DNA of 64,000 nt from contig JAKLDJ010000002.1 of NCBI GenBank assembly GCA_022703585.1, positions 155,413 through 219,412 of the forward strand, read 5' to 3'. Under the pieces are notes generated by a model. The model made no database searches, was not told the origin of the DNA, and worked only from the letters and a program-made list of their open reading frames with translations. The DNA comes from Candidatus Omnitrophota bacterium (lineage in GTDB: Bacteria > Omnitrophota > Gorgyraeia > Zapsychrales > JAKLDJ01). This document shows, piece after piece, positions 7,084 to 62,532 of this stretch (position 1 is the stretch's first letter; each line of letters begins with the position of its first letter). Position numbers and translations under genes: made by a program.

Positions 7084-7944
7084 TCAGGCGCGGGGATGGG
7101 CGCTTTCGTAGACACTCTTTAACTTTTCAGTCGTCATGTGAGTATAAATCTGGGTCGTCGAAAGATTGACGTGCCCGAGCAATTCCTGAACCGCCCTAAG
7201 ATCAGCGCCACGGTTAAGCAAATGCGTCGCAAATGAATGCCTTAAGGTATGCGGCGAAACGCTTTCCCTTAAAGCCGTCTGCCGAATATATTTATTGGTA
7301 ATATTTCGGATACTTCTATCCGAAAGCCGGGTTCCGTTTTTATTTAAAAATAACGCTCTCTCGGGCTTTTTTCTTTTATCCAGATATTCGCGAATAGCCC
7401 TAAGCGCCCTATCGCCGATGGGCACCAGCCGTTCTTTTTTTCCTTTGCCTAGAACTTTGACAATATTGCTAATAAAGTCAACGCTGTCCTCGTTTAATCC
7501 GACCAACTCGCTGACACGTATCCCTGTTGAGTAGAGCGTTTCTAGGATCGCCCGGTCACGAAAACCTGCCTCGTCATCGGCCAAGGGGGCCTCTAAGAAT
7601 TTCGTCACCTCGGCCTCGGTTAGAAATTGAGGTAATTTTTTATCCAGCTTCGGCGTCATCATCAGGCTCGACGGGTTATTCTTGACGTAGCCCTCCCGCT
7701 GCAGGAATTTAAAAAAACTTCGCAAGGATGAAAGTTTGCGCGCCAGGGTGCGCGGCTTATATTGCTTCTCGCGCATACTCGCCAAATAGCGCCGAAGGAC
7801 CAGGTAATCGACCTTTTCGACCGGCGTGTCTTTGGCAAAGACAGAGAACTCCCTAAGGTCCAACCCGTAATTAAGCCGTGTATGCGGAGAATAATTCTTT
7901 TCAATCTCCAGATACGACAGAAATTTGTCAATATACCGTTCCAT
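7084..7944 (-). CDS. xerC: Tyrosine site-specific recombinase XerC/XerD
   Basis: 286 aa; C-terminal R..HxxR..Y catalytic region (TLRHSFATHLL...TQIYTH); topA-xerC neighbourhood as in Firmicutes. Confidence 0.85.
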   Translation of the reverse strand: MERYIDKFLSYLEIEKNYSPHTRLNYGLDLREFSVFAKDTPVEKVDYLVLRRYLASMREKQYKPRTLARKLSSLRSFFKFLQREGYVKNNPSSLMMTPKLDKKLPQFLTEAEVTKFLEAPLADDEAGFRDRAILETLYSTGIRVSELVGLNEDSVDFISNIVKVLGKGKKERLVPIGDRALRAIREYLDKRKKPERALFLNKNGTRLSDRSIRNITNKYIRQTALRESVSPHTLRHSFATHLLNRGADLRAVQELLGHVNLSTTQIYTHMTTEKLKSVYESAHPRA

Positions 7945-16741: not shown

Positions 16742-16751
16742 AGAAACTCCC

Positions 16752-16900
16752 TTCTTTAATGAGGCCGCAACTTACGGAACGTCAGTGAACGTAAGTTGCG
16801 AGCCGAATTTAACCCCGCACCCTAGCACTTCAGGGAACCTAAACACTGGGTGCGGGGTAAGTTCAGCCAAATAACTTAGCTCGCTACCGCTCGCTAAGTT
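16752..16900. other. Cluster of three consecutive perfect-stem hairpins in the fba-ilvC intergenic region, none followed by a U-tract
   Basis: gcaacttacg...cgtaagttgc (10 bp stem), ccccgcaccc...gggtgcgggg (10 bp stem, 25 nt loop), aacttagc...gctaagtt (8 bp stem). Confidence 0.6.
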
Positions 16901-16914
16901 ATGGCTTCACTTAA

Positions 16915-18267: not shown

Positions 18268-18385
18268 TTAAACCCGGATTTTGCCTGCCCGTCAAATGGC
18301 GTGGTTGTGCAAAATCCGCCCTCCGGGCCGCTACGGCGCAACCTTTTGCGCCTAGCGGGGTTAACCCCACCAAAGGTGGGGTTAA
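18268..18385 (+). repeat. Copy A of a ~100-120 bp multi-hairpin intergenic element; fills the pfkA-fba spacer
   Basis: aacccgGattttgc...gcaaaatCcgccctccgggccgctacggcgcaaccttttgcgcctagcggggttaaccccaccaaaggtgggg; about 85 percent identical to the reverse complement of 29866-29962, with a compensatory G-C to A-T change in the long stem. Confidence 0.7.
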
Positions 18386-18391
18386 AAAATC

Positions 18392-19366
18392 TTAGGTTAA
18401 AATTTTCATTAAACGATAATATTCTTCGACCGGCAGCTTCTTTTGGGAACAGGCATGGCTTAAATCAACAATGTTAATTTTTTCTTCAACAATGCCTACG
18501 GCCTTTCCGTAAATACCTTTTAAAAGCAATTCGACCGCTGCCGCTCCGGTGCGCGTGGCAAATATCCTATCTAAGGCTGTCGGAGTACCGCCGCGTTGGA
18601 CGTGGCCCAAGACAACAAACCGGGTTTCAAGACCCGTTGACTTGGTAATCTTCTCGGCGATTTCATTGGCCTTGCCCGCCCCTTCGGCAACAACAACAAT
18701 CCAGCTTATTTTTCCTTTTTTGTTGCCCGCGACCATATCTTTATACATCTGCTGGTAATCAAACTTGTGTTCGGGGATAACAACATCTTCGGCCCCCGCG
18801 CCTAAGGCCACCTGCATGGCAATGTATCCGGAATTCCGCCCCATGACCTCAATAACAAAAATCCTTTCCATGCTTTGAGCGGTATCGCGTATTTTGTCAA
18901 TTGCCCCAAGGGCAGTATCAACCGCCGTATGGCAACCGATGGTCTGGTCCGTACCGCATAGGTCATTATCGATGGTACCCGGCAGACCAACCGTCGGGAA
19001 ACCCCATGTCTTGTACAAGATATTAGCCCCGCGATAGCTGCCGTCCCCGCCCACAACCACTAACCCGTCAATCCTGTGTTTTTTAAGCGTTCGAAGTGCC
19101 TTTTTCTGGCCTTCGACAGTCATAAATCTCTTAGAGCGTGCGGTCTTTAGAATCGTCCCGCCGCGATTGATGATATTGGAAACAGAGCGGTGATTAAGCT
19201 CAATGGTCTCGTCATCAATCAGCCCTTCGTAGCCCTTCATGATGCCGTTAACCTTTAATCCATAGTGCAGGGCAGAACGTACAACGCTGCGGACAGCGGC
19301 ATTCATCCCCGGGCCATCTCCTCCGGAAGTCAAAATGCCGATTTTCTTAATCTTTGTTTTCTTCAT
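18392..19366 (-). CDS. pfkA: ATP-dependent 6-phosphofructokinase
   Basis: 324 aa; GILTSGGDGPGMNAAVRSVVR N-terminus. Confidence 0.9.
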   Translation of the reverse strand: MKKTKIKKIGILTSGGDGPGMNAAVRSVVRSALHYGLKVNGIMKGYEGLIDDETIELNHRSVSNIINRGGTILKTARSKRFMTVEGQKKALRTLKKHRIDGLVVVGGDGSYRGANILYKTWGFPTVGLPGTIDNDLCGTDQTIGCHTAVDTALGAIDKIRDTAQSMERIFVIEVMGRNSGYIAMQVALGAGAEDVVIPEHKFDYQQMYKDMVAGNKKGKISWIVVVAEGAGKANEIAEKITKSTGLETRFVVLGHVQRGGTPTALDRIFATRTGAAAVELLLKGIYGKAVGIVEEKINIVDLSHACSQKKLPVEEYYRLMKILT

Positions 19367-19412
19367 TTCTCCGTAATCCTCGATAGTGATTACCCGGCCA
19401 AAAAGGGGCTAC

Positions 19413-20669
19413 CTACGTCCCCATGTTCCAGCTTGACAAATATTTCTTCTGCTCTGCCGTTAGCGTATCGATTTTGATTCCCAATGCTCTTAATTTCAGT
19501 TTAGCGATCATGCGATCAATATTTTCCGGAACGCTGTAGACCTGTTTCTTTAGTTTCTTATAATTCTTGGCAACATATTCGGATGAAAGCGCCTGATTGG
19601 CAAAACTCATATCCATAACCGATGCCGGATGGCCTTCGGCCGCCGCTAGATTCACAAGCCTGCCTTCGCCAAGAAGGTAAATATTCTTTCCGTTTCTTAG
19701 CGCATATTCTTCCACGAAGTCACGGATAATCCTTTTCGCCTTGGTAATTCTTGTTAAGCCCTTTAAATCTAATTCGGCGTCAAAGTGACCCGAATTTGCC
19801 ATGATAGCGCCATCTTTCATCAGCAGCATATGTTCAGCGCGAATGACATTAATATCACCCGTCACCGTAACAAAGACATCGCCTATCTTGGCAGCATCAC
19901 GAATAGTCATCACCTGATAGCCGTCCATAACAGCCTCAAGCGCTCTTAAAGGGTCAACCTCGGTCACGATAACCTTAGCCCCCATGCCCTCGGCACGCAT
20001 CGCCAAACCCCGTCCGCACCAACCGTAACCGCAAACAACAAAATTAGCCCCAGCCATCAAACGGTTGGTGGCGCGAATAATGCCGTCCATCGTCGACTGG
20101 CCTGTGCCGTAACGATTATCAAAAAAGTGCTTGGTCATGGCATCGTTAACCGCAATAATCGGATACATTAATAATTTCTGCGCTTGAAGACTCTTAAGGC
20201 GGATAACGCCGGTCGTGGTTTCTTCGGTACCGGCGAAAATATTTTCCGCCAAATCCCGCCGTTTCTGATGGATTGTCGAAACCAAATCCGCCCCGTCATC
20301 CATGGTCAGATTGGGCCGGCTGTCTAAAGCCGCGTTAAGATGCTTGTAGTAGGTCTTGGTGTCTTCGCCCTTAATGGCAAAAACACTAATGCCGTAATCT
20401 TTGACCAGCGAGGCCGCCACATCGTCCTGAGTCGAAAGAGGATTCGAGGCACAGACATTGACTAAGGCGCCACCGCTTTTTAAAACCCGCACCAGGTTCG
20501 CCGTCTCGGTCGTCACATGCAGGCAGCAGCTGACGGTTAAATGCTTGAGCGGCTTTTCTTTCGCGAATCTCTCTTCGATCAAGCGCAAAACAGGCATGTC
20601 CTTACGGGCCCATTCAATACGCAGTTTTCCCTTCTTTGAAAGCGACAGATTTTTTACGTCGTATTTCAT
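19413..20669 (-). CDS. ahcY: Adenosylhomocysteinase
   Basis: 418 aa; NAD-binding and catalytic motifs of SAH hydrolase ([19 protein letters not shown]). Confidence 0.9.
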
Positions 20670-20672
20670 TTT

Positions 20673-21824
20673 TTAGGCGTCCTTTTTTAGTATCGCGGCT
20701 TTTGAGGTATCTTCCCAGGTAAATTCGTTTCTGCCAAAATGGCCGTAGGCTGCCGTCTGGCGGTAAATCGGCCGCAGCAACTTTAGTTCCTCGATAATCC
20801 CTCTTGGCCGTAAGTCAAAATGCTTGCGCACTAACTCAACCAAGCGCTGAACAGGAACTTTTCCTGTATCAAACGTATCAATGGTAACGCTCACCGGGTC
20901 GGCGCGGCCTATGGCATAGCCAAACTGAACCCAGCATTGTTTGGCCAATTGCGCCGCGACAATATTCTTAGCAACGCAGCGGGCCATGTACGCCGCGGAA
21001 CGGTCGACCTTGGTCGGATCTTTTCCGGAAAACGCCCCGCCGCCGTGAGAAACAACGCCGCCGTAGGTATCGACAACGATTTTGCGGCCAGTAACGCCGG
21101 TATCGGACTGCGGACCACCGACGACAAATTTTCCCGTCTCATTGATGAAATAAATCGTATTTTTATCGACCATTTTCCCCAAAACGGATTTGGCGACAAC
21201 ATTAATGATCTCCTGGCGTGCTTTATCAGTAATCTTCTTGCCCGTCTTATCCAGGATTTTTTCGGTATGCTGGCAGGCTAAAACCACCGTATCGATGCGA
21301 ATAGGTTTTCCGTCCTTGTATTCTATGGTGACCTGGCTCTTGCAATCCGGGCCCAGATAGTCTAGCTCTTTTGACTTGCGCACCTCTTCGACCCGCCTGA
21401 CCAATTTATGAGCTAAAACAATAGGTAACGGCATCAATTCGGGCGTCTCATCGCAGGCATAACCGATCATGATTCCCTGGTCACCGGCACCACCTGTGTC
21501 AACACCTTGCGCAATATCCGGCGACTGGCTGTTGATCGCGTTAAGAATCGCGCAAGTCCCGGCATCAAACCCGTATTTGTGATCATTGTAACCGATATCA
21601 TTAAGGACATTGCGGACCAGCTTTTGAACGTCGACGTAGGTCGTCGTCGTAATTTCACCGCCGACAATAACTAACCCGGCTGAAATAAAGCTCTCGCAGG
21701 CCACGCGCCCCTTAGGATCGTCTTTTAAGACATCGTCTAATACCGCATCCGAAATCTGATCGCACACCTTATCCGGATGACCCTTACCCACCGACTCCGA
21801 AGTTAAGAAATATTTACCCTTCAC
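20673..21824 (-). CDS. metK: S-adenosylmethionine synthetase
   Basis: 383 aa; [25 protein letters not shown]-terminus. Confidence 0.9.
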
Positions 21825-21850
21825 TGTAGCTACCTTCCTTTCTTATTTGT

Positions 21851-22591
21851 TTAAGATAGAAAATCCTTCTGCGCTTTTTCGTATTCTTCGATACTGCCGA
21901 TATCATACCACTTCCCACCGAACGTAAAACCATAAACCTCGTCTTCCTCGGAAAGCCAGCGGATATAATCCCCGGTGGCATCCGTTTTTTGCGAACGCGA
22001 AACGTAATCGGGAATAGACTGAAGCGACTCTTTCGGGAAGAAATACAGGCACATCGCAATCAAGCTCGATTTAGGAGTCTGAGGTTTTTCCTCGAAAGAG
22101 ATAACCTTATTGCCTTTATCCAGCTTCACCACGCCGAATTTCTTGGCACTCTCGACATTCTTTATATCGTAAACTCCGATACTAACATGCGGCCTGTTTT
22201 TATCGGCACACTCTATATACTGTCCCAGGCCCAAATCAAATAAATTGTCTCCGCCGATAACCAGCAAATCTTCTTTGATCGTTTTCTTTTTAAAGACAAA
22301 ATCAATATCCCCCACCGCCCCCAACCGCCCTTCGGGCGTTGTCGTCCCGTCATTAATAATCGCAATCGGAACAGGAAAACTCTTGTTCGCCTTAGCCCAA
22401 TCTTCAAAGGGGCCGTGAAACCGCTCGTTGGTGACAACGATAACCTCGGAGAGACTCTTCAAATGAACCGCCTTATCAATCAGGTGGTTCATGATCGGTT
22501 TACCGGCAAAGGATAAGAGCGGCTTTGGCTTATCCTTAGTCAGAGGGTAAAGCCTGGTTCCGTATCCGGCGGCTAAAACTAATACTTTCAT
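21851..22591 (-). CDS. Sugar-phosphate nucleotidyltransferase (NTP_transferase family)
   Basis: 246 aa; LAAGYGTRLYPLTKDKPKPLL motif. Confidence 0.7.
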   Translation of the reverse strand: MKVLVLAAGYGTRLYPLTKDKPKPLLSFAGKPIMNHLIDKAVHLKSLSEVIVVTNERFHGPFEDWAKANKSFPVPIAIINDGTTTPEGRLGAVGDIDFVFKKKTIKEDLLVIGGDNLFDLGLGQYIECADKNRPHVSIGVYDIKNVESAKKFGVVKLDKGNKVISFEEKPQTPKSSLIAMCLYFFPKESLQSIPDYVSRSQKTDATGDYIRWLSEEDEVYGFTFGGKWYDIGSIEEYEKAQKDFLS

Positions 22592-22603
22592 AGCGGGTTT
22601 CTT

Positions 22604-24376
22604 TTATATCCTGCTGTTACCGTCCGCGCTAAATATCTGCGGAGCCAATTCTTTAAGTTTCGACTTGCTAAATGCCTCTACCTCGGCCCCGGTCGAAAGG
22701 CTTAAGGCGGCCAGCGCCATCTCCTGCGCATCTTTATAGCTAACGCTACGGATCAATTTCTTGATCTGCAAAATATTAAGAGCTGACATACTGAATTCAT
22801 CTAGGCCTAAGCCCAACAAGAGAAACGCCAGAGTCGGCTCACCCGACATCTCTCCGCAAAGCCCTATGCTGATACCCCCGGCGTGTCCATCATCGATAAT
22901 TCTTTTGATCAAACGTAAAATCGCCGGGTGACCCGGATCGTAGAGATCCGCGGTCTGCTCGTTGGCACGGTCAACGGCCAGGGTATATTGAATCAAATCA
23001 TTGGTACCAATGCTAAAGAAATCCGTCTCTTTGGCCAAAATATCCGCTGTCAAAGCCGCAGAAGGAACCTCAATCATAACGCCGACTTTCATATGTTCAT
23101 CAAAACGAATTCCCTCTTCCTTCAAATCCTTCTTCACTTCCTCGAGGATCGCATTGGCCTGACGCAATTCTCCGGCACCGGAAATCATCGGGTACATGAG
23201 TTTTATCTTTCCGTGAGCCGAGGCCCTTAAAACCGCACGCAGCTGCGTTTTAAAGATATCCGGCCGCGCCAGACAAAAACGGATAGCCCGCCACCCCAAA
23301 AACGGATGCATGTCCCTGGGAATTTGTAAACTCGAAACAAATTTATCGCCTCCTAAGTCAAGGCTGCGTATCGTCACCGAATACGGCGCGATGGATTCGG
23401 CCACATGCTTGTAGGCTTCATACTGCTCGTCTTCGGAAGGAAGATCAATCCGGTTCATATAAAAATATTCAGTACGATAAAGCCCTACACCGCCGGCACC
23501 CTGTTTTAAAACGATAGGGATCTCCTCGGGCAAATCAAGATTTGCTAAGATGGTAACTTTGTGCCCGTCTGTTGTTTCGGCCGGTAAATCTTTAATGTCT
23601 GAAAACCGGTCCCGCAAGGCTTCGATCCTGCGCTGTTCGTTGCGGTAAATCTCCAAGGTGGCCTGCGAAGGATTAATGATCAAAAGCCCCATTCTTCCGT
23701 CGACAACAATAAAATCCTGGTTGCTGATCCGCAACGTCGCATCTTTTAAACCCACCACCGCCGGAATTCCCAGCGATTTGGCCATGATAGCCGTATGCGA
23801 CGTACGCCCGCCGATATCGGTGGCAAAGGCAATAATGTTTTTGTTGAACATGCTTGCCGTATCCGAAGGAGAGAGATCGTGCGAGATAATAATCATCTGC
23901 TCGCTTAAGTTTTCCAGGTCATGCCATTTCGATTCGCCGATCAGATTCTTTAACAGACGCCGGCCGACATCATTGATATCGCTGGTCCGTTCCCTTAAAT
24001 ATTCGTCCTGAATAGTCGAAAAAACTTTTATATAATTTTTAAGAACTTCCGAAAAGACAAATTCCACACACAGCGCCTCTTTTTTGATTCTTTTAATCAC
24101 CTGCTCAATAAGCATGCGGTCTTCGAGAACCAGGATATGGGCATCAAAAATCTGGGCATGCTGCATACCCATCTCGTCGGCAATCTTTCTTTGAACCGCA
24201 AGGATCTCGTCCCGGGTCTTAATAATCGCCTCTTCAAAGCGCGCAATCTCGATAGGGATTTCTTTTTCCATGACAGAGCGGGGTGGCACAATAAATTCCT
24301 GCTTATCCAGAATAAATGCCGGACCGCAGGCAACCCCCGGCGCCGCCGGAATTCCTTTTAAGACTATCTCAGCCAT
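22604..24376 (-). CDS. ptsI: Phosphoenolpyruvate-protein phosphotransferase (PTS Enzyme I)
   Basis: 590 aa; [21 protein letters not shown] phosphohistidine region and C-terminal PEP-utilising TIM barrel. Confidence 0.9.
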
Positions 24377-24632
24377 TTTTTATTAAAAACTCCTCTAATT
24401 CGGCAACCGCCTGCTGGGCATCATCCCCATCGGCCTCAATGGTAATTTTGCTTAGGCGCTGCGCTGCCAGCATCAAAATCCCCATGATCGACTTGCCGTT
24501 GACTTTTTCTTTGCCTTTCTTAACGGTAATTTTTGAATCGTATTTTGCGGCAATCTGCACAAATAACGCCGCCGGCCTGGCATGCAGGCCCTGCTCGCTA
24601 AGAATCGTTATCTCACGCTCTACCTTCGCCAT
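24369..24632 (-). CDS. ptsH: Phosphocarrier protein HPr; start taken at internal MAKVERE, whereas the ORF track extends to 24662
   Basis: ~88 aa; active-site GLHARPAA. Confidence 0.8.
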
Positions 24633-24668
24633 CGTAACACCCATTCCATCTCCGCCCTGCACAGAAAT

Positions 24669-25913
24669 TTAACGCTTAATAACCCTGCTGCGCTCAATCA
24701 GACGAATCAAGGCTTTGGTCAATTTGCGGGAATCATGACGCACATAATCATCAACCCCCAGCAAGTCTTCCTCAACAACTTCATAGCCCATCTTTTTTAT
24801 CGTTTCGGAATCAGCATCTACGGGATAAGAATTCTCCGTCTTGTAGCGCCCGAGCATTTCCTTGGAAGTAATGACAGCATTATTAACAAGGCAGGCATTC
24901 ACAATGCCCTCATTCGTGTGCTCGATAATGGCATTCAAATGTTCGCTGGCCTTGTACGCTTCCGTCTCGCCCTGTTGAGTCATTACATTACAAACATAAA
25001 CTTTAAACGCCGATGAATCCCGGATAGCTTCCGCCACTCCGGGAATAATCAGGTTTGGTATAACACTGGTATAGAGACTGCCCGGCCCCAGGATAATGAC
25101 TTCGGAAGCTGCAATGGCGGCAATAGCCTCCTCCGTCGGCTGCGCATCTTTCGGCTTAAGAAACAGCTGCTTAATCCGCAAATTAGGCTTGGGGATATCA
25201 GCTTCGCCCTCGGTGCGGGAACCGTCCATATATTCCGCTACCAGATGCACATTCGCGACAGTTGACGGGATAACCCTTCCCCGGATAGCCAAGACCTTAC
25301 TCGATTCCTTAACGGCTTTTTCAAAATCTCCGCCGGTCAGCTGAAACATCGCCGTTAAAAAAAGATTTCCGAAATTATGTCCCTGCAGCTGCGAATCCTT
25401 AGAAAAACGGAACTGAAAAAGCTGCCCCATCAAGGCCGGCGCATCGGCCAGAGCAACCAGGCAATTACGAATGTCCCCGGGAGCCACAATGTTAAATTCC
25501 TCGCGTAATCTCCCCGAGGAGCCGCCGCTATCGGCCACGGTAACAATGGCCGTAATATTCGATGAGTAATCTTTTAACCCTAACAGCAAATTAGAAAGCC
25601 CGTGGCCACCGCCGATGGCGACGATTTTCGGGCCCCGCTCCAGATACCGCCGCTGATAAAGGATGTTGACCAAATCCCGCTCGCGTTCGGGTAAGAACAA
25701 GGTAATCAGCGAAACAATCATCTTGCCCATTCCGTAAACCAGAAGCACGATACCGCAGATAATGATCACGGCGCCGCACATGCTGACTAACGGGTAAGGC
25801 TGGGCCATGGCAATGGCCCCGCCGCCGACAACAATAACTCCGAACAGCGAGGTAAATGCCCACCGCTTGATCCTCATGCCGGGATAAAGCCATTTAAAAA
25901 GATTTTTAGGCAC
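24669..25913 (-). CDS. yvcK: YvcK/CofD-like (UPF0052) protein with N-terminal membrane helices
   Basis: 414 aa; KIVAIGGGHGLSNLL and VTVADSGGSSGRLR motifs; two N-terminal TM segments. Confidence 0.75.
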   Translation of the reverse strand: MPKNLFKWLYPGMRIKRWAFTSLFGVIVVGGGAIAMAQPYPLVSMCGAVIIICGIVLLVYGMGKMIVSLITLFLPERERDLVNILYQRRYLERGPKIVAIGGGHGLSNLLLGLKDYSSNITAIVTVADSGGSSGRLREEFNIVAPGDIRNCLVALADAPALMGQLFQFRFSKDSQLQGHNFGNLFLTAMFQLTGGDFEKAVKESSKVLAIRGRVIPSTVANVHLVAEYMDGSRTEGEADIPKPNLRIKQLFLKPKDAQPTEEAIAAIAASEVIILGPGSLYTSVIPNLIIPGVAEAIRDSSAFKVYVCNVMTQQGETEAYKASEHLNAIIEHTNEGIVNACLVNNAVITSKEMLGRYKTENSYPVDADSETIKKMGYEVVEEDLLGVDDYVRHDSRKLTKALIRLIERSRVIKR

Positions 25914-25994
25914 AGATTTTTACCGATTATACCGATTTGTTTCTACAAAAAACTTAAATGAATCCGATTCTTAAGCGTACAGTCCGGGGTGGAT

Positions 25995-26465
25995 TTATGG
26001 TGTACGTTCGTCTTCCTGGGCAATCAACTTTAGAATGAGCTTGTCGTCTTTCATTTGCTTGATGTTCTCTCTAAAGTATTTGTCTTTTAACAAATGCGAG
26101 ATTTTCGCCAGGGCTTTTAAATGCGGGCCGGCGGAATCGGTAGGTGCCACCAACAAAAAGAAAATATAGGCAGGCTCACCGTCCAAGGAATCAAAATCAA
26201 CGCCTTTGCGGCTAACCCCCAGTGCCGCCGTCATCTTACCGACAAAATCACATTTCCCGTGCGGAATAGCGACCCCTTGTCCGATGGCGGTTGATCCTAA
26301 GGCCTCTCGGGCTAGAAGGGTTTCAACAAGCTTGAGCTTGTTTTTCTTTTCAATCGTACCGGCGCTAACCAAAAGGCCAACCATCTCCTGGATAACCTCT
26401 TTTTTATTAGCACCTTTAAGGTCTGTCGTGACTGCCTTCGGACAAAGAAACTCTCCGATTTTCAT
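25995..26465 (-). CDS. ptsN: PTS EIIA-Ntr-type regulatory protein
   Basis: 156 aa; IIA-fructose/nitrogen fold with GVAIPHGK active-site histidine region. Confidence 0.8.
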   Translation of the reverse strand: MKIGEFLCPKAVTTDLKGANKKEVIQEMVGLLVSAGTIEKKNKLKLVETLLAREALGSTAIGQGVAIPHGKCDFVGKMTAALGVSRKGVDFDSLDGEPAYIFFLLVAPTDSAGPHLKALAKISHLLKDKYFRENIKQMKDDKLILKLIAQEDERTP

Positions 26466-26541
26466 TAGATTTTCCTCCTAACGTTTGCGTTCAGACGCTA
26501 AACGATATTGAGTGTTTGAGTAGATGTGATAAAAAAGAAAA

Positions 26542-26613
26542 AGCGGCGGATGGGACTTGAACCCACGCCATCCTGCTTGGCAAGCAGGCATTCTACCACT
26601 GAATTACCGCCGC
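26542..26613 (-). tRNA. tRNA-Gly (anticodon GCC)
   Basis: Reverse complement folds as a cloverleaf: acceptor GCGGCGG/CCGCCGC, anticodon loop TTGCCAA, T-loop TTCAAGT. Confidence 0.85.
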
Positions 26614-26696
26614 ATAAACTTTCTGGATCGCACATGAGCCTTTATGTCTTTTACAAAGAACACGTATCCTATTCCGATGCGGGTGCTAAAAATTCA

Positions 26697-26778
26697 TGGG
26701 CGGAAGAGGATTTGAACCTCCAAGGGTTGCCCCACATGCTCCTAAGGCATGCGCGTCTGCCAATTCCGCCACCCGCCC
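26697..26778 (-). tRNA. tRNA-Leu (anticodon TAG), long variable arm
   Basis: Reverse complement GGGCGGGTGGCGGAATTGGCAGACGCG...CTTAGGA...GGTTCAAATCC; 82 nt with an extended variable arm. Confidence 0.85.
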
Positions 26779-26866
26779 GAATAGACTCATTCGGCCAAAA
26801 AAATCCCAAAAAGAATAACTGATAACTAAGAGCCTTCAAAAGCCGGGCCGGATTTCTTATAAATAA

Positions 26867-26942
26867 TGGTGACCCACCCGCGGCTCGAACGCGGCACCCC
26901 TGCCTTAAAAGGGCAGTGCTCTACCAGATGAGCTAGTGGGTC
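26867..26942 (-). tRNA. tRNA-Lys (anticodon TTT) with encoded CCA
   Basis: Reverse complement GACCCACTAGCTCATCTGGTAGAGCACTGCCCTTTTAAGGCAGGGGTGCCGCGTTCGAGCCGCGGGTGGGTCACCA. Confidence 0.9.
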
Positions 26943-27007
26943 ATTTATTTTATAAATTTTCAAAGAAATGCTACCGCGCAATGCACAATCACAAAATCAT
27001 CGCGCAT

Positions 27008-27577
27008 CTATTTATTATCAAATTCCGTCAATTCCTTATTCTTCATTTCCAAAATCTTATCGACTTCTTTAATATATTTATCCGTCAACTTCTGGACTTC
27101 TTCTTGCCCTTTAAAATTATCATCCTCGGCGATAAGCTTGTCCGTTTCCATCTTTTTAATCTTTTCATTCGCTTCGCGGCGTATCGTCCGGAGAGAAACC
27201 CTTCCGTTCTCGGCCATATCCCTGACCACCTTGGTCATTTCCTGGCGACGCTCTTTTGAAAGAGGCGGAATAGACAGGCGCATGACCTTTCCGTCGTTCG
27301 AGGGCATGATCCCGAGATTGGATTTTAAAATAGCTTTTTCAATCTCCGGAATAGCCGAGATATCCCAGGGCTGAACCATAATCGTCTTGGAATCGGGAAT
27401 AGAAATAGACGCAATCTGCTTAACCATGGTCGGTGTCCCGTAATAATCGATATGCATGCCTTCGATTAAACCCGGATGGGCCCGCCCGGTACGCACTTCC
27501 GAGAATTCACGAGCGACGGATTCAACGGTCTTTTTCATTCTTGTTTCTGTTTGCACAATAGTCTCTTTAAGATTCAT
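27008..27577 (-). CDS. frr: Ribosome recycling factor
   Basis: 189 aa; full-length RRF similarity. Confidence 0.9.
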   Translation of the reverse strand: MNLKETIVQTETRMKKTVESVAREFSEVRTGRAHPGLIEGMHIDYYGTPTMVKQIASISIPDSKTIMVQPWDISAIPEIEKAILKSNLGIMPSNDGKVMRLSIPPLSKERRQEMTKVVRDMAENGRVSLRTIRREANEKIKKMETDKLIAEDDNFKGQEEVQKLTDKYIKEVDKILEMKNKELTEFDNK

Positions 27578-27592
27578 AACGCACCACCCTTT

Positions 27593-28348
27593 TTAACGCA
27601 CGACAGTTCCGATTTTTTCTCCCAGGACAACCCGCTTGATATTGCCTTCTTTGAGGAGATTAAAGACCACGATGGGCAAATCATTATCCATGCACAGGCT
27701 GATGGCAGTCGCATCCATAACCTTCAAATTTTTCTTTAGGACATCAATAAATTTAAGCTGAGAAAACTTTTTGGCATTGCGGTTCTTGACCGGATCCGCA
27801 GAATAGATGCCGTCGACTTTGGTGGCCTTTAAAATAACATCGGCATCAATTTCTTTGGCGCGCAGTGCCGCCGCCGTATCGGTCGTAAAAAAGGGATTCC
27901 CCGTACCGGCAACAAAAATGATAACTCGGTCTTTTTCCAAATGACGCATGGCACGCCGGCGGATATAGGATTCGGCAACGGCACGCATTTCGATGGCTGT
28001 TATCACGCGCGTCGGGACATCGAGTTTTTCCAAGGCATTCTGAAGGGCTAGGCCGTTTAAGACGGTGGCCAGCATACCCATGTAATCACCGACCGCCCGG
28101 TCAAGGCCGAACCGCTTGGATTCCAGCTGGCCGCGAAAGATATTTCCGCCGCCTACCACCAAAGCAATTTTAACCCCCAAATCCAGAACTTCTTTAACCT
28201 GACGGGCCAAAGACGCGCAGACATCAGCGTCAATACCGTGATTCTGTCGGCCCTGCAAGGCCTCGCCGCTTAGCTTTAAAAGAATGCGTTTATAAACCGG
28301 TTTTTTATTCAACTTCGCCCACCTTATAGCGAATGAAACGACTGACAA
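27593..28348 (-). CDS. pyrH: Uridylate kinase; 5' end uncertain because the predicted start is a TTG overlapping tsf by 44 nt
   Basis: 251 aa; [12 protein letters not shown] motif. Confidence 0.85.
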
Positions 28349-28853
28349 TAATGTTCTCGCCCGTCTTGGAAATAAGGGAATTAAGATAATCCCTGACCGT
28401 TAGCTTCGGGTCTTTGACAAAGGCCTGGTCTAAAAGACAATTTTGCTTTACATATTCTTCGGCATTTTTTTCCTGCTTTAAAACATCCGCCGGGACATCT
28501 TCTTGTTTGATATATTTCGGCGACATGGCCGCAATGTGCATGGCAACATCCTTGGAAAACTGGCAGAAATCCGCGTTTTTTGCTACAAAATCTGTTTCGC
28601 AATTCACCTCGAGCAAAACGGCGATCTTAGAACCAAGGTGGACATAGGCCTCAACCTTCCCCTCTTTGGCCGTACGGCTCCCTTTTTTGGCCGCGAGCTC
28701 AACGCCCCTTTTCTTTAAAATTTCTTTGGCCTTCTCGACATTGCCCTTGGCTTCTTCCAGCGCTTTTTTGCATTCAATGACACCGCACGATGTCATCTCG
28801 CGTAATTCCCTGATTTCGTCTACAGAAACTCCCATTTTAATAGTTCCCTTCAT
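28305..28853 (-). CDS. tsf: Elongation factor Ts (short form)
   Basis: 182 aa; UBA-like N-terminus ([37 protein letters not shown]). Confidence 0.85.
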
Positions 28854-28883
28854 TTATTGATTTTAGTTTGATTTTCTCCAGAA

Positions 28884-29747
28884 CTACTTCTTATCTCTGG
28901 TCAGCCGCACCTTGGTGGGCCCGCGTTTATCCGGCTCTTTCAAGACAACGGCAGAGGCTTCGATAGATTCGCTCTCTTCTTTGATAATTTCCTCTTCCTC
29001 GGCGGAAATACCGGCCTCTTGTTCGGCCTCGAGTCTTTCCCGAACGCTCTCGCTGGCTAAAAATGCCTTTTTCCCCTCGATAATACTATCCGTAATAATT
29101 GATGTAATCAGCTTGATGGATTTAAGTGCATCATCATTGCCGGGAATAGGAAAAGTGATCAAATCGGGATTGCAATTGGTGTCGATCAAACCAACGATAG
29201 GAATACCGAGTTTGGTGGCTTCTTTTACAGCGTTTTCTTCCTTGTTGGAATCAACGATAAAAATCGCCTGGGGCAGACGGCCCCCCATATCCCGAATACC
29301 GTTAAGATCGCGAGCAAGCTTATCTTTTTCCTTGGTCAAAAGGGCAACTTCTTTTTTGGTTAGCTTCTCAAAGGTACCGTCTTCGCCCATCCTTTCGATC
29401 GATTTCATCCGCTCGACTGATTTCTTGACCGTCTGGTAATTGGTCATGAGCCCCCCTAACCAGCGGTAGCGGACATAAAAAATGCCGGCCCTTTTGGCCT
29501 GCTCTTCCATTACTTCCTGGGCCTGTTTTTTGGTGCCCGCAAAAAGAATATTACCTCCCTTAGCAGCCACATCATGGAGAAAATCGCATGCCGCATTAAG
29601 GCATTCGACTGTCTTTTCCAAGTCAATAATGTAAATGCCGCTGCGATCGCCAAAGATGAACCTCTTCATCTTGGGATTCCAGCGTTTTGTCTGGTGCCCA
29701 AAGTGGACACCCGCTTCCAGCAATTTCTTGATTAATTCCTCAGCCAT
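28884..29747 (-). CDS. rpsB: 30S ribosomal protein S2 with acidic C-terminal extension
   Basis: 287 aa; [20 protein letters not shown]-terminus. Confidence 0.9.
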
Positions 29748-29865
29748 TTCTCCTCCATAGTTTCAACGTGAATTTTTAGTTGACCCCGATTTTGCATTAC
29801 ACTTTTATTTCTCAATTATCAATGAAAATCAAAATATAATTCAAAATCTACCTCCGATCACCTTC

Positions 29866-29962
29866 GTCGGGGTTAACCCCACTAGGCGCAACACGTTGCG
29901 CCGCAGCGGCCCAGAGGGCGAATTTTGTCCAGCCATCGGCTGGACAAAATTCGGGTTGAAGT
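29866..29962 (-). repeat. Copy B of the multi-hairpin intergenic element, inverted relative to copy A, ~120 bp upstream of rpsB
   Basis: Reverse complement reads caacccgaattttgtccagccgatggctggacaaaattcgccctctgggccgctgcggcgcaacgtgttgcgcctagtggggttaaccccgac; 15 bp perfect long stem. Confidence 0.7.
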
Positions 29963-29974
29963 AGTATACCCAAT

Positions 29975-30140
29975 AATCGATTTCTTTGCAACTTTTTATT
30001 TCAGATCGGGTTGATTTTCAAAATCGGTTTTTTTGCGAAAAATCACCCCAATTCTACCCAAAAATGCTATTTTTCCCAAATTTCACCCCTAAATCATACC
30101 CAAAATACCCCACTGAGTATAAGTATTATATAAAAGGGGG
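29975..30140 (-). repeat. Degenerate tandem repeat with regularly spaced G3-4 tracts on the minus strand (C-tracts on plus), in the msbA 3' region
   Basis: Minus strand reads GGGGTATTTTG GGTATGATTTAG GGGTGAAATTTG GG...TTTTTG GGTAGAATTG GGGTGATTTTT: six units of ~11-13 nt. Confidence 0.5.
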
Positions 30141-54860: not shown

Positions 54861-54980
54861 AGAAATCTCTTCTTGAATTTAAAGGAAGCCGGGACATTGC
54901 GCCTGAGTCCCCTCATATCAAGAGAGGATTTTACTCTTTGATGCTGATAAAATCAAGATTTTTAAGGGAAATACTCAAAG

Positions 54981-55029
54981 ATTGAAAAAGCTTGGGGGCC
55001 GTTCGACCTTTAGTCGAACGGCCCCCAAG
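54981..55029 (-). terminator. Rho-independent terminator (17 bp perfect stem) downstream of the glycine-zipper lipoprotein gene; T-tracts on both sides
   Basis: cttgggggccgttcgac-cttta-gtcgaacggcccccaag followed by CTTTTTCAATCTTT on the minus strand and CACATTTTTCT on the plus strand. Confidence 0.75.
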
Positions 55030-56901: not shown

Positions 56902-56989
56902 ATTTATCCTCTTAAGATAGCGTCCGGGCGCCCCGCCTTTAAGGCGGGGCGCCCGGAGTCAGTCCCTCTACTATTAAACTTATTTTTTC

Positions 56990-59238: not shown

Positions 59239-59282
59239 GGAAATAAAAGCATGGGGGCAATCCGCTTTTGCGGATTGCCCCC
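59239..59282 (-). terminator. Rho-independent terminator downstream of the aldehyde dehydrogenase gene
   Basis: gggggcaatccgc-tttt-gcggattgccccc (13 bp stem) followed by ATGCTTTTATTT on the minus strand. Confidence 0.75.
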
Positions 59283-59379
59283 TTGGATTAAAATTTATAA
59301 GTTCATACCGTCAAATAACATACGGTAATTTTAACGTTAATTATCAAACAGGGCAAGAAAAATAATCCCGGCCTTATAA

Positions 59380-60959: not shown

Positions 60960-61904
60960 TTAAGGCGTAGGGCTTGGCGCTAACATCTTGTCCGAAGAAG
61001 ATACGACAGGCAAACGTATCTTCTGGCCCGTGTAGATTTTTGAGTCACTTAGCCCGTTTAATCGCATCAATTCTGCAACCAAAGTGCGCGATCTTTTCGC
61101 AATGCCAAAAAGGGTATCACCTGACTGAACAATATAAACCTTGGCGGAATTGTTTTCCTTTAAAGAATCATCCGATTGTTTGAGCCCGGGTGGCGGAACA
61201 TTGCGAATCAATTTAGCACCTAAAGACTTTTTAAGATAACGGGCATAGCTTGTTTTTCTTAAAAGCGGCTTAACCGCGTTAATGGGCACGGCAAAATTAA
61301 GATTTTGCCCTTTAGGGTGGCTGGCGACCGTAACCCCAACCACTTCGCCTGCCAGATTAAACAACGGACCTCCACTGCTACCCGGCGATAGCGGTACGCT
61401 GATCTGTAAAAGCCCAACACCTTTTGAGGTATTACGCAACGAACTGATCAATCCGTCGCTAACCGTCTCTGCAAGACCCAGGGGATTACCAATCGTCACC
61501 ACCCGCTGGCCCACCTTAACCGAATCGCTGTCGCCTAATTTAACCGTGGATAGATTTTTCCCGCTGATCTTAATCAGGGCAATGTCATTAATCGTATCAA
61601 TGGCAACAATTTTTACCTTAAGATAGCCGGTGTTATTCTTTAATTTAATCACAATCCTTTTCGCCTTATCCAAAAGATGGTAATTCGTTACAATAAATCC
61701 ATCGGGTGTAATGACAAAGCCCGTTCCGGCTCTACTGTTCTTTCCGGATCGGTCAGCCGCCCCTATCAAAACAACCGCATCGGCATTTTGGGAAAAAAGA
61801 TTGGAGATTGCCCGGTCGTCCGTCTGGGCGAGCCCCGGCGCGGCGCTGCCAAGCAGCGCCGCGCCAAAACTCATAAGAATAAAAACTTTAATAAGTCGAT
61901 CCAT
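60960..61904 (-). CDS. Secreted trypsin-like serine protease (S1C/DegP-like, no PDZ) with C-terminal LysM domain; start taken at internal MDRLIK
   Basis: Signal peptide MDRLIKVFILMSFGAALLGSAAPGLA; GNPLG and GSSGGPL catalytic motifs; LysM YIVQSGDTLFGIA. The longer ORF to 62042 would overlap the next gene. Confidence 0.75.
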   Translation of the reverse strand: MDRLIKVFILMSFGAALLGSAAPGLAQTDDRAISNLFSQNADAVVLIGAADRSGKNSRAGTGFVITPDGFIVTNYHLLDKAKRIVIKLKNNTGYLKVKIVAIDTINDIALIKISGKNLSTVKLGDSDSVKVGQRVVTIGNPLGLAETVSDGLISSLRNTSKGVGLLQISVPLSPGSSGGPLFNLAGEVVGVTVASHPKGQNLNFAVPINAVKPLLRKTSYARYLKKSLGAKLIRNVPPPGLKQSDDSLKENNSAKVYIVQSGDTLFGIAKRSRTLVAELMRLNGLSDSKIYTGQKIRLPVVSSSDKMLAPSPTP

Positions 61905-61926
61905 GGGTTGTTTAGTCTTATTTATT

Positions 61927-62532
61927 CTAAGCCAAAGTCCTGCCGGCGGATTGCGCGAGAGAGATTTGTCTTTGATTAAGCTTCTGTTGTTCGCTCTGAT
62001 TGACCATACCGAAATAAATATTTTTAACAACCTTGGCTCCAAACGTTTCCGCGGACACTTTAAGTATCGTTAAAGCGCTGGGCATTAAGAATCTGCCCAC
62101 GATCGCAGGACAAGCGCTGGAGGTAACCACAATCGCTCTTTTGTCCGGACTTTTCTTAACCCTTGGTTTGGGCGCGGCCTGTTCCCAGGGCCAATAAGCA
62201 TAGACAATAAGCCGTTCGACAAAACGTTTCATGAGAGCAGTGATAGTGTAAAAGTTTATGGGAGAAGCCAGAATAACCCCGTCGGCTGCATCAATCTTGT
62301 CCAATAATTCCCCCATATCGTCTTTTATGATGCAGGCAGCACGTTTGGCGGCCAAATTTTCCTTGCAGCAACTGCGGCAATTGGTGCAAAATTCAATATG
62401 CTTATCCAAAAGATACACTTTTTCTATTTGGGCACCTTTTTCCCGCGCGCCTTCTAAAACCGCATCCGCAATCTGCTCGGTAATACCATTTTTTCTGTAA
62501 CTGCCGATAATGGCGATGATTTTCTTTGTCAT
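61927..62532 (-). CDS. Flavodoxin-fold NAD(P)H-dependent FMN reductase / iron-sulfur flavoprotein-like
   Basis: 201 aa; IAIIGSYRKNG and CTNCRSCC cysteine cluster. Confidence 0.7.
   Translation of the reverse strand: MTKKIIAIIGSYRKNGITEQIADAVLEGAREKGAQIEKVYLLDKHIEFCTNCRSCCKENLAAKRAACIIKDDMGELLDKIDAADGVILASPINFYTITALMKRFVERLIVYAYWPWEQAAPKPRVKKSPDKRAIVVTSSACPAIVGRFLMPSALTILKVSAETFGAKVVKNIYFGMVNQSEQQKLNQRQISLAQSAGRTLA

Follow-up and report, generated by a model that had tools for sequence, protein, structure and literature searches.

MITEs and the ERIC/IRU, Correia/NEMIS, RUP and BOX repeats are non-coding sequences of about 100-150 nt that are dispersed, in either orientation, over co-transcribed intergenic positions. 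They are present or absent among close relatives and have stable RNA folds. MITEs as a class measure less than about 600 bp, carry terminal inverted repeats and target-site duplications, and are dispersed in multiple copies alongside an autonomous element that shares their ends. Elements of the ERIC/Correia type are essentially one long imperfect palindrome with terminal inverted repeats of 20-30 nt. BIMEs are assembled from REP units of alternating orientation and are present in hundreds of copies, and elements of the IS200/IS605 type show a strong orientation bias relative to replication. PATEs are protein-less IS200/IS605 derivatives that are mobilised in trans and carry a target-adjacent motif beside one end (PMC10055086). 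We analyzed a 64-kb stretch of DNA (the window) that holds two copies, A and B, of a non-coding block measuring 106-114 nt. We think that A and B are probably copies of a non-autonomous mobile element of about 110 nt, found in an uncultivated Candidatus Omnitrophota bacterium and resembling MITEs, REPs and PATEs.

The copies lie as follows:

18271..18384, plus strand: copy A, a net insertion of 114 nt, boundaries ±3 nt

29850..29957, minus strand: copy B

The original prediction had put two copies at these places with about 85% identity outside one variable loop, and both statements held. Copies A and B form the longest inverted repeat of the window (18302-18378 versus 29859-29935, 77 nt, 84% complementary), the runner-up measuring 40 nt, and a MAFFT alignment gave a mean column identity of 86% over 107 aligned columns. 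The copies are poorly alignable solely in the distal half of their first hairpin. All the ordered modules that had been listed were found in both, and two of these, the hairpin GGCGCAA-N4-TTGCGCC and the perfect 12-nt palindrome GGGGTTAACCCC, have exact matches nowhere else in the window. A covariance model (CM) built from the two sequences scored copy A at 127.9 bits and copy B at 114.4 bits, and everything else in the window at less than 19 bits. The third-best match in the window (61821-61938, 18.7 bits) falls on the start of a gene, where a signal peptide is encoded, and a match in locus L114 (15.8 bits) falls within a radical-SAM gene; we discarded both as chance. The organism is represented in ENA ERZ761563 (by a contig of 1.17 Mb), JGI 3300010429 and an NCBI TPA MAG, and copies A and B are unchanged in three other assemblies of it. 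A contig of 1855 nt from the same organism in another sample (L004, JGI 3300019247) starts at window position 29842, some 8 nt beyond the point where copy B ends on its 3' side; this resembles an assembly break at a repeat or a strain-polymorphic insertion and is weak evidence.

All genes near the two copies are encoded on the minus strand. Copy A lies between the stop of pfk (18392) and the start of the class II fructose-bisphosphate aldolase gene fba (18237); it begins a few bases past the pfk stop, ends 34 nt ahead of the fba start and has an orientation antisense to transcription. The spacer that contains copy B is 394 nt long and separates the stop of an ABC-exporter gene (30142) from the rpsB start (29747); copy B is in sense to rpsB, the first gene of the downstream operon rpsB-tsf-pyrH-frr. 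With respect to their downstream genes fba and rpsB, the two copies thus point in opposite directions, as had been described. A promoter scan identified one site close to copy B:

29963..29991, minus strand: sigma-70-like promoter TTGCAA-17-TATACT, kept in relatives without the element

This promoter (29991-29963 in reading direction) ends six bases ahead of copy B. From the usual distance between -10 and +1, the transcript would start at about 29956-29957, which is the first base of the copy B closing helix described below. The same scan gave no promoter-like site near copy A. Neither copy carries a terminator-like hairpin with a T-run, in agreement with the earlier statement that they lack a U-tract and are not intrinsic terminators; at copy A, an A-run follows the terminal hairpin on the sense strand and a T-run precedes it on the other strand. 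Further upstream of the rpsB promoter, at about 30040-30115 (minus strand), the A/T-rich spacer contains a run of periodically spaced GGGGT/GGGTA/GGGGTGA motifs. Most of the run is kept in the close relative, and it might represent an UP-like region or a series of protein-binding sites. An ordinary tRNA cluster, tRNA-Gly(GCC), tRNA-Leu(TAG) and tRNA-Lys(TTT), occupies 26542-26942 (minus strand) between frr and a PTS EIIA gene.

We located the corresponding loci of three relatives (L090/L097, L091/L098 and L094) via homologues of FBA and S2. The closest one, L090/L097 (Logan SRR32119625_9457), has amino acid identities of 97% in FBA and 96% in S2, about 87% nucleotide identity over 21.8 kb, and an unchanged arrangement of genes that runs from the ABC exporter over rpsB to pfk-fba-ilvC. 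The pfk-fba spacer measures 154 nt in the window compared to 40 nt in L090, and to 32 nt (L091) and 35 nt (L094) in the more distant relatives, whose FBA identities are 81% and 75%. When the window was aligned with L090, the flanks of this spacer matched and the difference was one clean block of 114 nt with BLAST breakpoints at window positions 18272 and 18384. The rpsB promoter is identical in L097 and conserved in L098 (S2 identity 70%), and the element follows it only in the window genome: in L098 the rpsB leader is short and plain, and at the exact point of copy B, L097 carries a structured, GC-rich and unrelated block of about 105-115 nt. Both sites are empty or different in all three relatives, and the absence of the element from their orthologous spacers marks A and B as lineage-specific insertions. 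These comparisons show that one and the same sequence entered two unrelated spacers, in opposite orientations, once the lineage had separated from its closest sampled relative. Lineage-specific insertion into unrelated transcribed spacers in opposite orientations is the behaviour of a MITE-, REP- or PATE-like mobile element.

The block of the closest relative deserves a separate remark. It spans positions 7446-7560 of locus L097, has a folding z-score of -3.1, stands right after the conserved rpsB promoter and supplants the ancestral leader. It has a short AAGGTG..GTAGA motif in common with the 3' ends of A and B and otherwise no detectable homology to them. The site next to the rpsB promoter may be an insertion hot spot.

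The gene order bears on the idea that A and B bound, as terminal repeats, a composite transposon or invertible segment of 11.7 kb (18271-29957). Such a structure would suit copies that are inverted, with their 5' ends (AACCCGRATTTTG) pointing outward, 11,480 nt apart. However, the interior consists of the housekeeping genes pfk, ahcY, metK, ptsI, HPr, tRNAs, frr, pyrH, tsf and rpsB, and relatives that lack both repeats have these genes, as well as fba and the ABC exporter outside, in the same order and on the same strand. As the genes across both junctions all lie on the same strand, no inversion occurred. Synteny thus excludes the composite transposon, and we give this idea next to no probability.

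Minimum free energy (MFE) folding of the sense strands (plus for A, minus for B) gave one architecture for both copies. Three adjacent hairpins are enclosed by a closing helix of 4-5 bp, AACCC/GGGTT, into a cloverleaf-like four-way junction, and a terminal hairpin follows. Since zero bases are left unpaired between the helices, the predicted four-way junction is a perfect one. The parts of the fold are:

18276..18317, plus strand: copy A arm 1, a long imperfect hairpin (MFE fold, alifold)

18318..18328, plus strand: copy A arm 2, GCCC-TCC-GGGC, 4 bp with a 3-nt loop (MFE fold, alifold)

18329..18357, plus strand: copy A arm 3, CGCTA-C-GGCGCAA-CCTT-TTGCGCC-TAGCG, 5+7 bp with one bulged C (exact pattern, MFE fold, alifold)

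18358..18362, plus strand: copy A closing helix, 3' half GGGTT, pairing with AACCC at 18271-18275 (RNA MFE, alifold)

18362..18384, plus strand: copy A terminal hairpin, TAACCCCACC-AAA-GGTGGGGTTA, followed by an A-run and no T-run (fold)

29957-29953 with 29879-29875, minus strand: copy B closing helix (fold)

29952-29920, minus strand: copy B arm 1 (fold)

29919-29909, minus strand: copy B arm 2 (fold)

29908-29880, minus strand: copy B arm 3 (fold)

29873-29850, minus strand: copy B degenerate terminal hairpin (fold)

The base of arm 1, GGATTTTG/CAAAATCC in copy A, is conserved (consensus of both copies GRATTTTG/CAAAATYC) and its distal part is variable. Arm 2 (GCCC-TCY-GGGC) has the same stem in A and B and a loop that reads C or T; arm 3 follows the consensus CGCTR-C-GGCGCAA-N4-TTGCGCC-TAGYG. 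The GGGTT of the closing helix (18358-18362) belongs to the palindrome GGGGTTAACCCC, and the terminal hairpin is perfect in A and degenerate in B. The folds are far more stable than those of shuffled sequences, the RNA z-scores for the sense strand being -7.6 (A) and -6.0 (B), and those for the complementary strand -5.2 (A) and -6.3 (B); in each case 0 of 200 shuffles were equally stable. With DNA parameters the sense strands reached z-scores of -6.1 (A) and -6.7 (B), and the hairpins were predicted again, the closing helix for B only and not for A. We consider the hairpins themselves solid. The cloverleaf is a reasonable prediction that rests on 4-5 pairs, and as these are invariant, the closing helix lacks support from covariation.

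Substitutions between the copies were counted over 29 modelled stem pairs in two sequences (58 cells). All 58 cells are standard pairs and 0 pairs are broken between A and B. The stem substitutions keep pairing in four of four cases, comprising one compensatory pair and two single-side changes to G·U. The compensatory pair is the double change from G-C to A-T (A-U) in the long stem that the original prediction had described; it is real (alignment columns 12/51 in arm 1), and RNAalifold adds a second pair, C-G to U-A, higher in the same arm (columns 19/44). The loops of arms 2 and 3 vary between A and B. A shuffle control, which is uninformative with two sequences, matched the observed pairing value in 269 of 500 shuffles. 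The further claim that pairing is under selection thus stands in weakened form: with two sequences, intact pairing next to varying loops is suggestive of selection on single-strand pairing. RNAalifold, run in both orientations, gave a consensus of 35 pairs and -43.4 kcal/mol for the sense strand versus 26 pairs and -36.6 kcal/mol for the antisense strand, which lacks the closing helix as well as the outer pairs of arm 3. The G·U pairs of copy B exist on the sense strand only, the strand that is transcribed with rpsB, and this is why the sense consensus retains the whole junction.

Such a pattern would also be left by a functional structured RNA, be it a cis-acting 5' or intercistronic stabiliser, a processing signal or a small RNA, whose fold is selected and whose module was duplicated to a second locus. 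The very stable fold (z down to -7.6), stem substitutions that all keep pairing while loops vary, G·U pairs of copy B confined to the strand transcribed with rpsB and the better consensus fold on the sense strand agree with this, as does the position of copy B at the predicted +1 of a conserved promoter, where known 5' stabilisers sit. Nevertheless, we consider a functional RNA rather unlikely. Copy A lacks its own promoter and runs antisense to its operon, so that A and B would yield complementary RNAs and not the same RNA. Every relative examined lacks the element at both loci, it is also absent from 1.24 Mb of rpsB loci, and Rfam has no match. Both hairpin loops differ between the copies, with no loop sequence conserved, and the covariation comes from two sequences. 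The proposal of an sRNA family is weakened, given the lack of conservation in relatives, the opposite orientation of the copies relative to transcription, the missing promoter at A, and a promoter at B that is simply the ancestral one of rpsB.

The mobile element reading makes the ends of the copies the next point of interest. Copy A is bordered by a repeated pentamer:

18268..18272, plus strand: TTAAA at the left junction of copy A, read from the sequence

18382..18386, plus strand: TTAAA at the right junction of copy A, read from the sequence

This repeat may reflect a target-site duplication, or else a target motif together with an element end that matches it. The empty pfk-fba site of L090 reads ..caatGAAAAgatt.. 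and has TGAAA. The left junctions of the two copies, TTAA|ACCCGG for A and TTCAA|CCCGAA for B, both contain TYAA, and the target may supply the AA of the closing helix. At copy A the terminal inverted repeat, TTAA(A)CCC versus GGGGTTAA, is only about 7-8 nt long; the right end of copy B is degenerate and shows no recognisable target duplication. Hairpins lie near both ends, arm 1 on the left and arm 3 with the terminal hairpin on the right, and there are no long inverted repeats. GC skew is uniformly negative across the region and hence places A and B in opposite orientations on one replichore (n=2). A clean block with hairpin ends of its own and a possible short A/T-rich target repeat bears the signature of a small non-autonomous mobile element.

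The 8-mer GGGGTTAA occurs ten times in the window compared to 2.7 expected occurrences, a number that 0 of 100 shuffles reached, and six of the ten occurrences are accounted for by copies A and B. Its sites are 16809, 18357-18385, 28170, 29869-29880, 35000, 38202 and 49771, one of them being the foot of the middle hairpin of the fba-ilvC spacer. Together with the perfect palindrome GGGGTTAACCCC, which is exclusive to the two copies, and with the promoter that adjoins copy B, this enrichment might point to a protein-binding module in double-stranded DNA, for example an operator on the 12-bp palindrome and its neighbouring palindromes. We regard such a module as very improbable. Most of the enrichment stems from A and B themselves, and the compensatory and wobble changes keep intrastrand pairing and not a fixed duplex sequence. 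Moreover, the relatives retain promoter and operon without the module, and fba/pfk and rpsB have no obvious regulatory logic in common.

A one-off ectopic duplication would explain the two copies with no mobile family at all. A cluster of hairpins would have been copied from one spacer to another by templated repair insertion or gene conversion, in a lineage whose hairpin-rich spacers evolve fast. Only two copies are present in 81 kb, and hairpins nearby show rapid turnover compared to L090/L097 (gain of nested hairpins, the inversion of a loop in the fba-ilvC spacer, the different block at the rpsB site). In addition, the divergence of about 14% between A and B is not above that from the relative which lacks both (about 13% overall), and older source copies are therefore not needed. 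We had read the 14% as a trace of such source copies and dropped this, as the closest relative itself has about 87% nucleotide identity. Ectopic duplication still requires one original insertion, since the outgroups have neither site filled. At A the insertion is clean, is bordered by a 5-nt direct repeat and is complete with its terminal hairpin, and the left junctions share TYAA|CCCG, which suits defined ends and not a random patch. We therefore consider an ectopic duplication rather unlikely and a mobile element the better reading.

No third copy was detected by the CM in the 64-kb window (filters off) or in the adjacent 10 kb on the left and 7 kb on the right, which together make up 81 kb of a genome of 1.2-1.6 Mb. 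The search of about 72 kb from the three nearest relatives (L090/L097, L091/L098, L094) was equally negative, and the element was not found in 1.24 Mb around rpsB of 80 GTDB genomes from Omnitrophota and others. Exact scans of viral contigs with three patterns gave no match or unrelated chance matches. The scan of genome contigs with an exact pattern gave 0 matches, and metagenome contigs gave 0 and then 13 chance matches in high-GC contigs, of which the CM matched 0 of 13. The public collections behind these pattern scans are without this species (the pattern is present in L003 and the metagenome scan was empty), and exact patterns miss diverged copies. At the gathering score, Rfam reported nothing at A or B, and the only matches that passed in the window were three tRNAs elsewhere; under permissive settings, no Rfam match at the two loci went below E=0.5. 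Neither copy was called as a tRNA or tmRNA by ARAGORN, and blastn against plasmids and phages gave no match.

The open reading frames that cross the element are short ones only. Further copies might appear in protein libraries as spurious translated ORFs, but a joined translation of four open reading frames per copy had no match among 5.8 billion proteins, and a profile of the open frame, searched against 1.84 billion representatives, gave four weak matches, all to unrelated tandem-repeat proteins. In the annotated parts of the window and the added flanks we saw no transposase of the Y1 or another type, no TnpB or omega-RNA, and no autonomous element with the same ends. The one tyrosine recombinase gene has topA and dprA as neighbours, and L091 carries a corresponding gene in the same place; from these neighbours and this counterpart we infer that it probably encodes a housekeeping Xer protein.

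How does the element compare to the described families? With MITEs, ERIC/IRU, Correia/NEMIS, RUP and BOX it shares its length, lack of coding capacity, position in co-transcribed spacers in either orientation, presence or absence among close relatives, stable RNA folds and perhaps a short A/T-rich target duplication (TTAAA at A). It has no sequence similarity to ERIC/IRU, Correia/NEMIS, RUP or BOX, as judged from the Rfam, phage and plasmid searches. Unlike the ERIC/Correia type, it consists of three separate hairpins plus a terminal hairpin, has a terminal inverted repeat of about 7-8 nt, and is represented by two copies with no known parent insertion sequence. BIMEs resemble it as mosaics of adjacent palindromic units in intercistronic spacers that carry no U-tract and plausibly stabilise mRNA; in contrast to BIMEs, its hairpins are mutually unrelated and the whole block moves as one unit. 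REPs are imperfect palindromes of 20-40 nt that start with a conserved GTAG-type tetranucleotide, are present in many copies and go together with a RAYT gene. From REPs it differs in having no GTAG-headed unit of 20-40 nt and in the two copies found in 81 kb, and the annotated parts of the window and its flanks showed no Y1 transposase. The original prediction of a REP/BIME- or MITE-like structured repeat is accordingly supported as far as a mobile repeat is concerned, both sites being empty in the nearest relatives, and not as a strict REP/BIME, for which we saw neither a GTAG-headed palindrome nor a high copy number.

The IS200/IS605-derived PATEs and REP/REPIN elements have in common with our element the hairpin ends, a structure that is kept on one strand with G·T pairs, a bulged base in one stem and the absence of a protein. 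Different from the IS200/IS605 type, the copies point in opposite directions on one replichore and thus show no orientation bias, a weak observation with n=2. To our knowledge, a four-way junction has not been described as a feature of the PATE or REP families. Both insertions lie directly 3' of TYAA, as with the transposon-adjacent motif of PATEs (PMC10055086), and the right end of A repeats the motif, although n=2 and the junction of A is equally readable as a duplication.

If the element is mobile, a transposase encoded elsewhere in the genome would move it. The enzyme might recognise the folded single strand, as is the case with IS200/IS605 TnpA or the REP-associated Y1 transposases. We slightly favour this over DDE cut-and-paste with a TTAAA duplication in view of the weak terminal inverted repeat, the hairpin ends, the wobble pairs on one strand and the TYAA junction common to both copies. 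The preference is only slight given the opposite orientations on one replichore, the two copies, and annotated parts in which no transposase was seen.

Once inserted, the element would be co-transcribed. Copy B would set a very stable paired structure at the 5' end of the rpsB mRNA, and in pfk-fba the complement of copy A would form a stable intercistronic structure. Such structures are presumably tolerated and may serve as RNA stabilisers, as REP, ERIC and Correia elements do. Judged from its predicted fold and position, copy B could well stabilise the rpsB transcript as a side effect.

The kind of element is already known, and the family itself is undescribed: neither Rfam nor BLAST gave a match, and we found no description in the literature on Omnitrophota mobile elements, non-coding repeats or cloverleaf MITEs. 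Most likely we are dealing with an ordinary kind of small parasitic repeat in a little-studied phylum. It is quite improbable that A and B represent a new class of mobile element. In such a class the cloverleaf would be recognised, the closing helix would be formed by the target TYAA plus CCC paired with the internal GGGTT as a 'guide', and movement would depend on an Omnitrophota enzyme not yet linked to transposition; the same low probability covers a co-opted 5'-end or intercistronic RNA stabiliser of highly expressed genes. A defined element with filled and empty sites provides a starting point for strain typing and for tracing the transposase. It would further allow one to study how insertions alter the expression of core genes, at the first nucleotide of the rpsB-tsf leader and inside the pfk-fba operon. 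Its practical importance is limited unless the family is large or the mechanism of mobilisation unusual.

Several other spacers of the window are structured as well. The fba-ilvC spacer (16742-16914) contains three stacked hairpins with -83 kcal/mol and corresponds to L090 11324-11532; its most notable stretch is 16812-16858 (minus strand). The loop of the middle hairpin, about 25 nt long, is inverted compared to the closest relative, scoring 7 as the reverse complement and -4 directly, which indicates a tiny inversion between the 11-bp stem arms. In the third hairpin the closest relative has about 36 nt of extra nested hairpins. As the fba-ilvC spacers of distant relatives measure 0-24 nt, this whole hairpin block is lineage-specific too. 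Very long and perfect G+C-rich hairpins of 13-19 bp were found in the spacers at 56902-56989, ~54950-55000 and ~59260-59300. The hairpin at ~56923-56957 has no T-run after it, and those at ~54950-55000 and ~59260-59300 look like ordinary intrinsic terminators.
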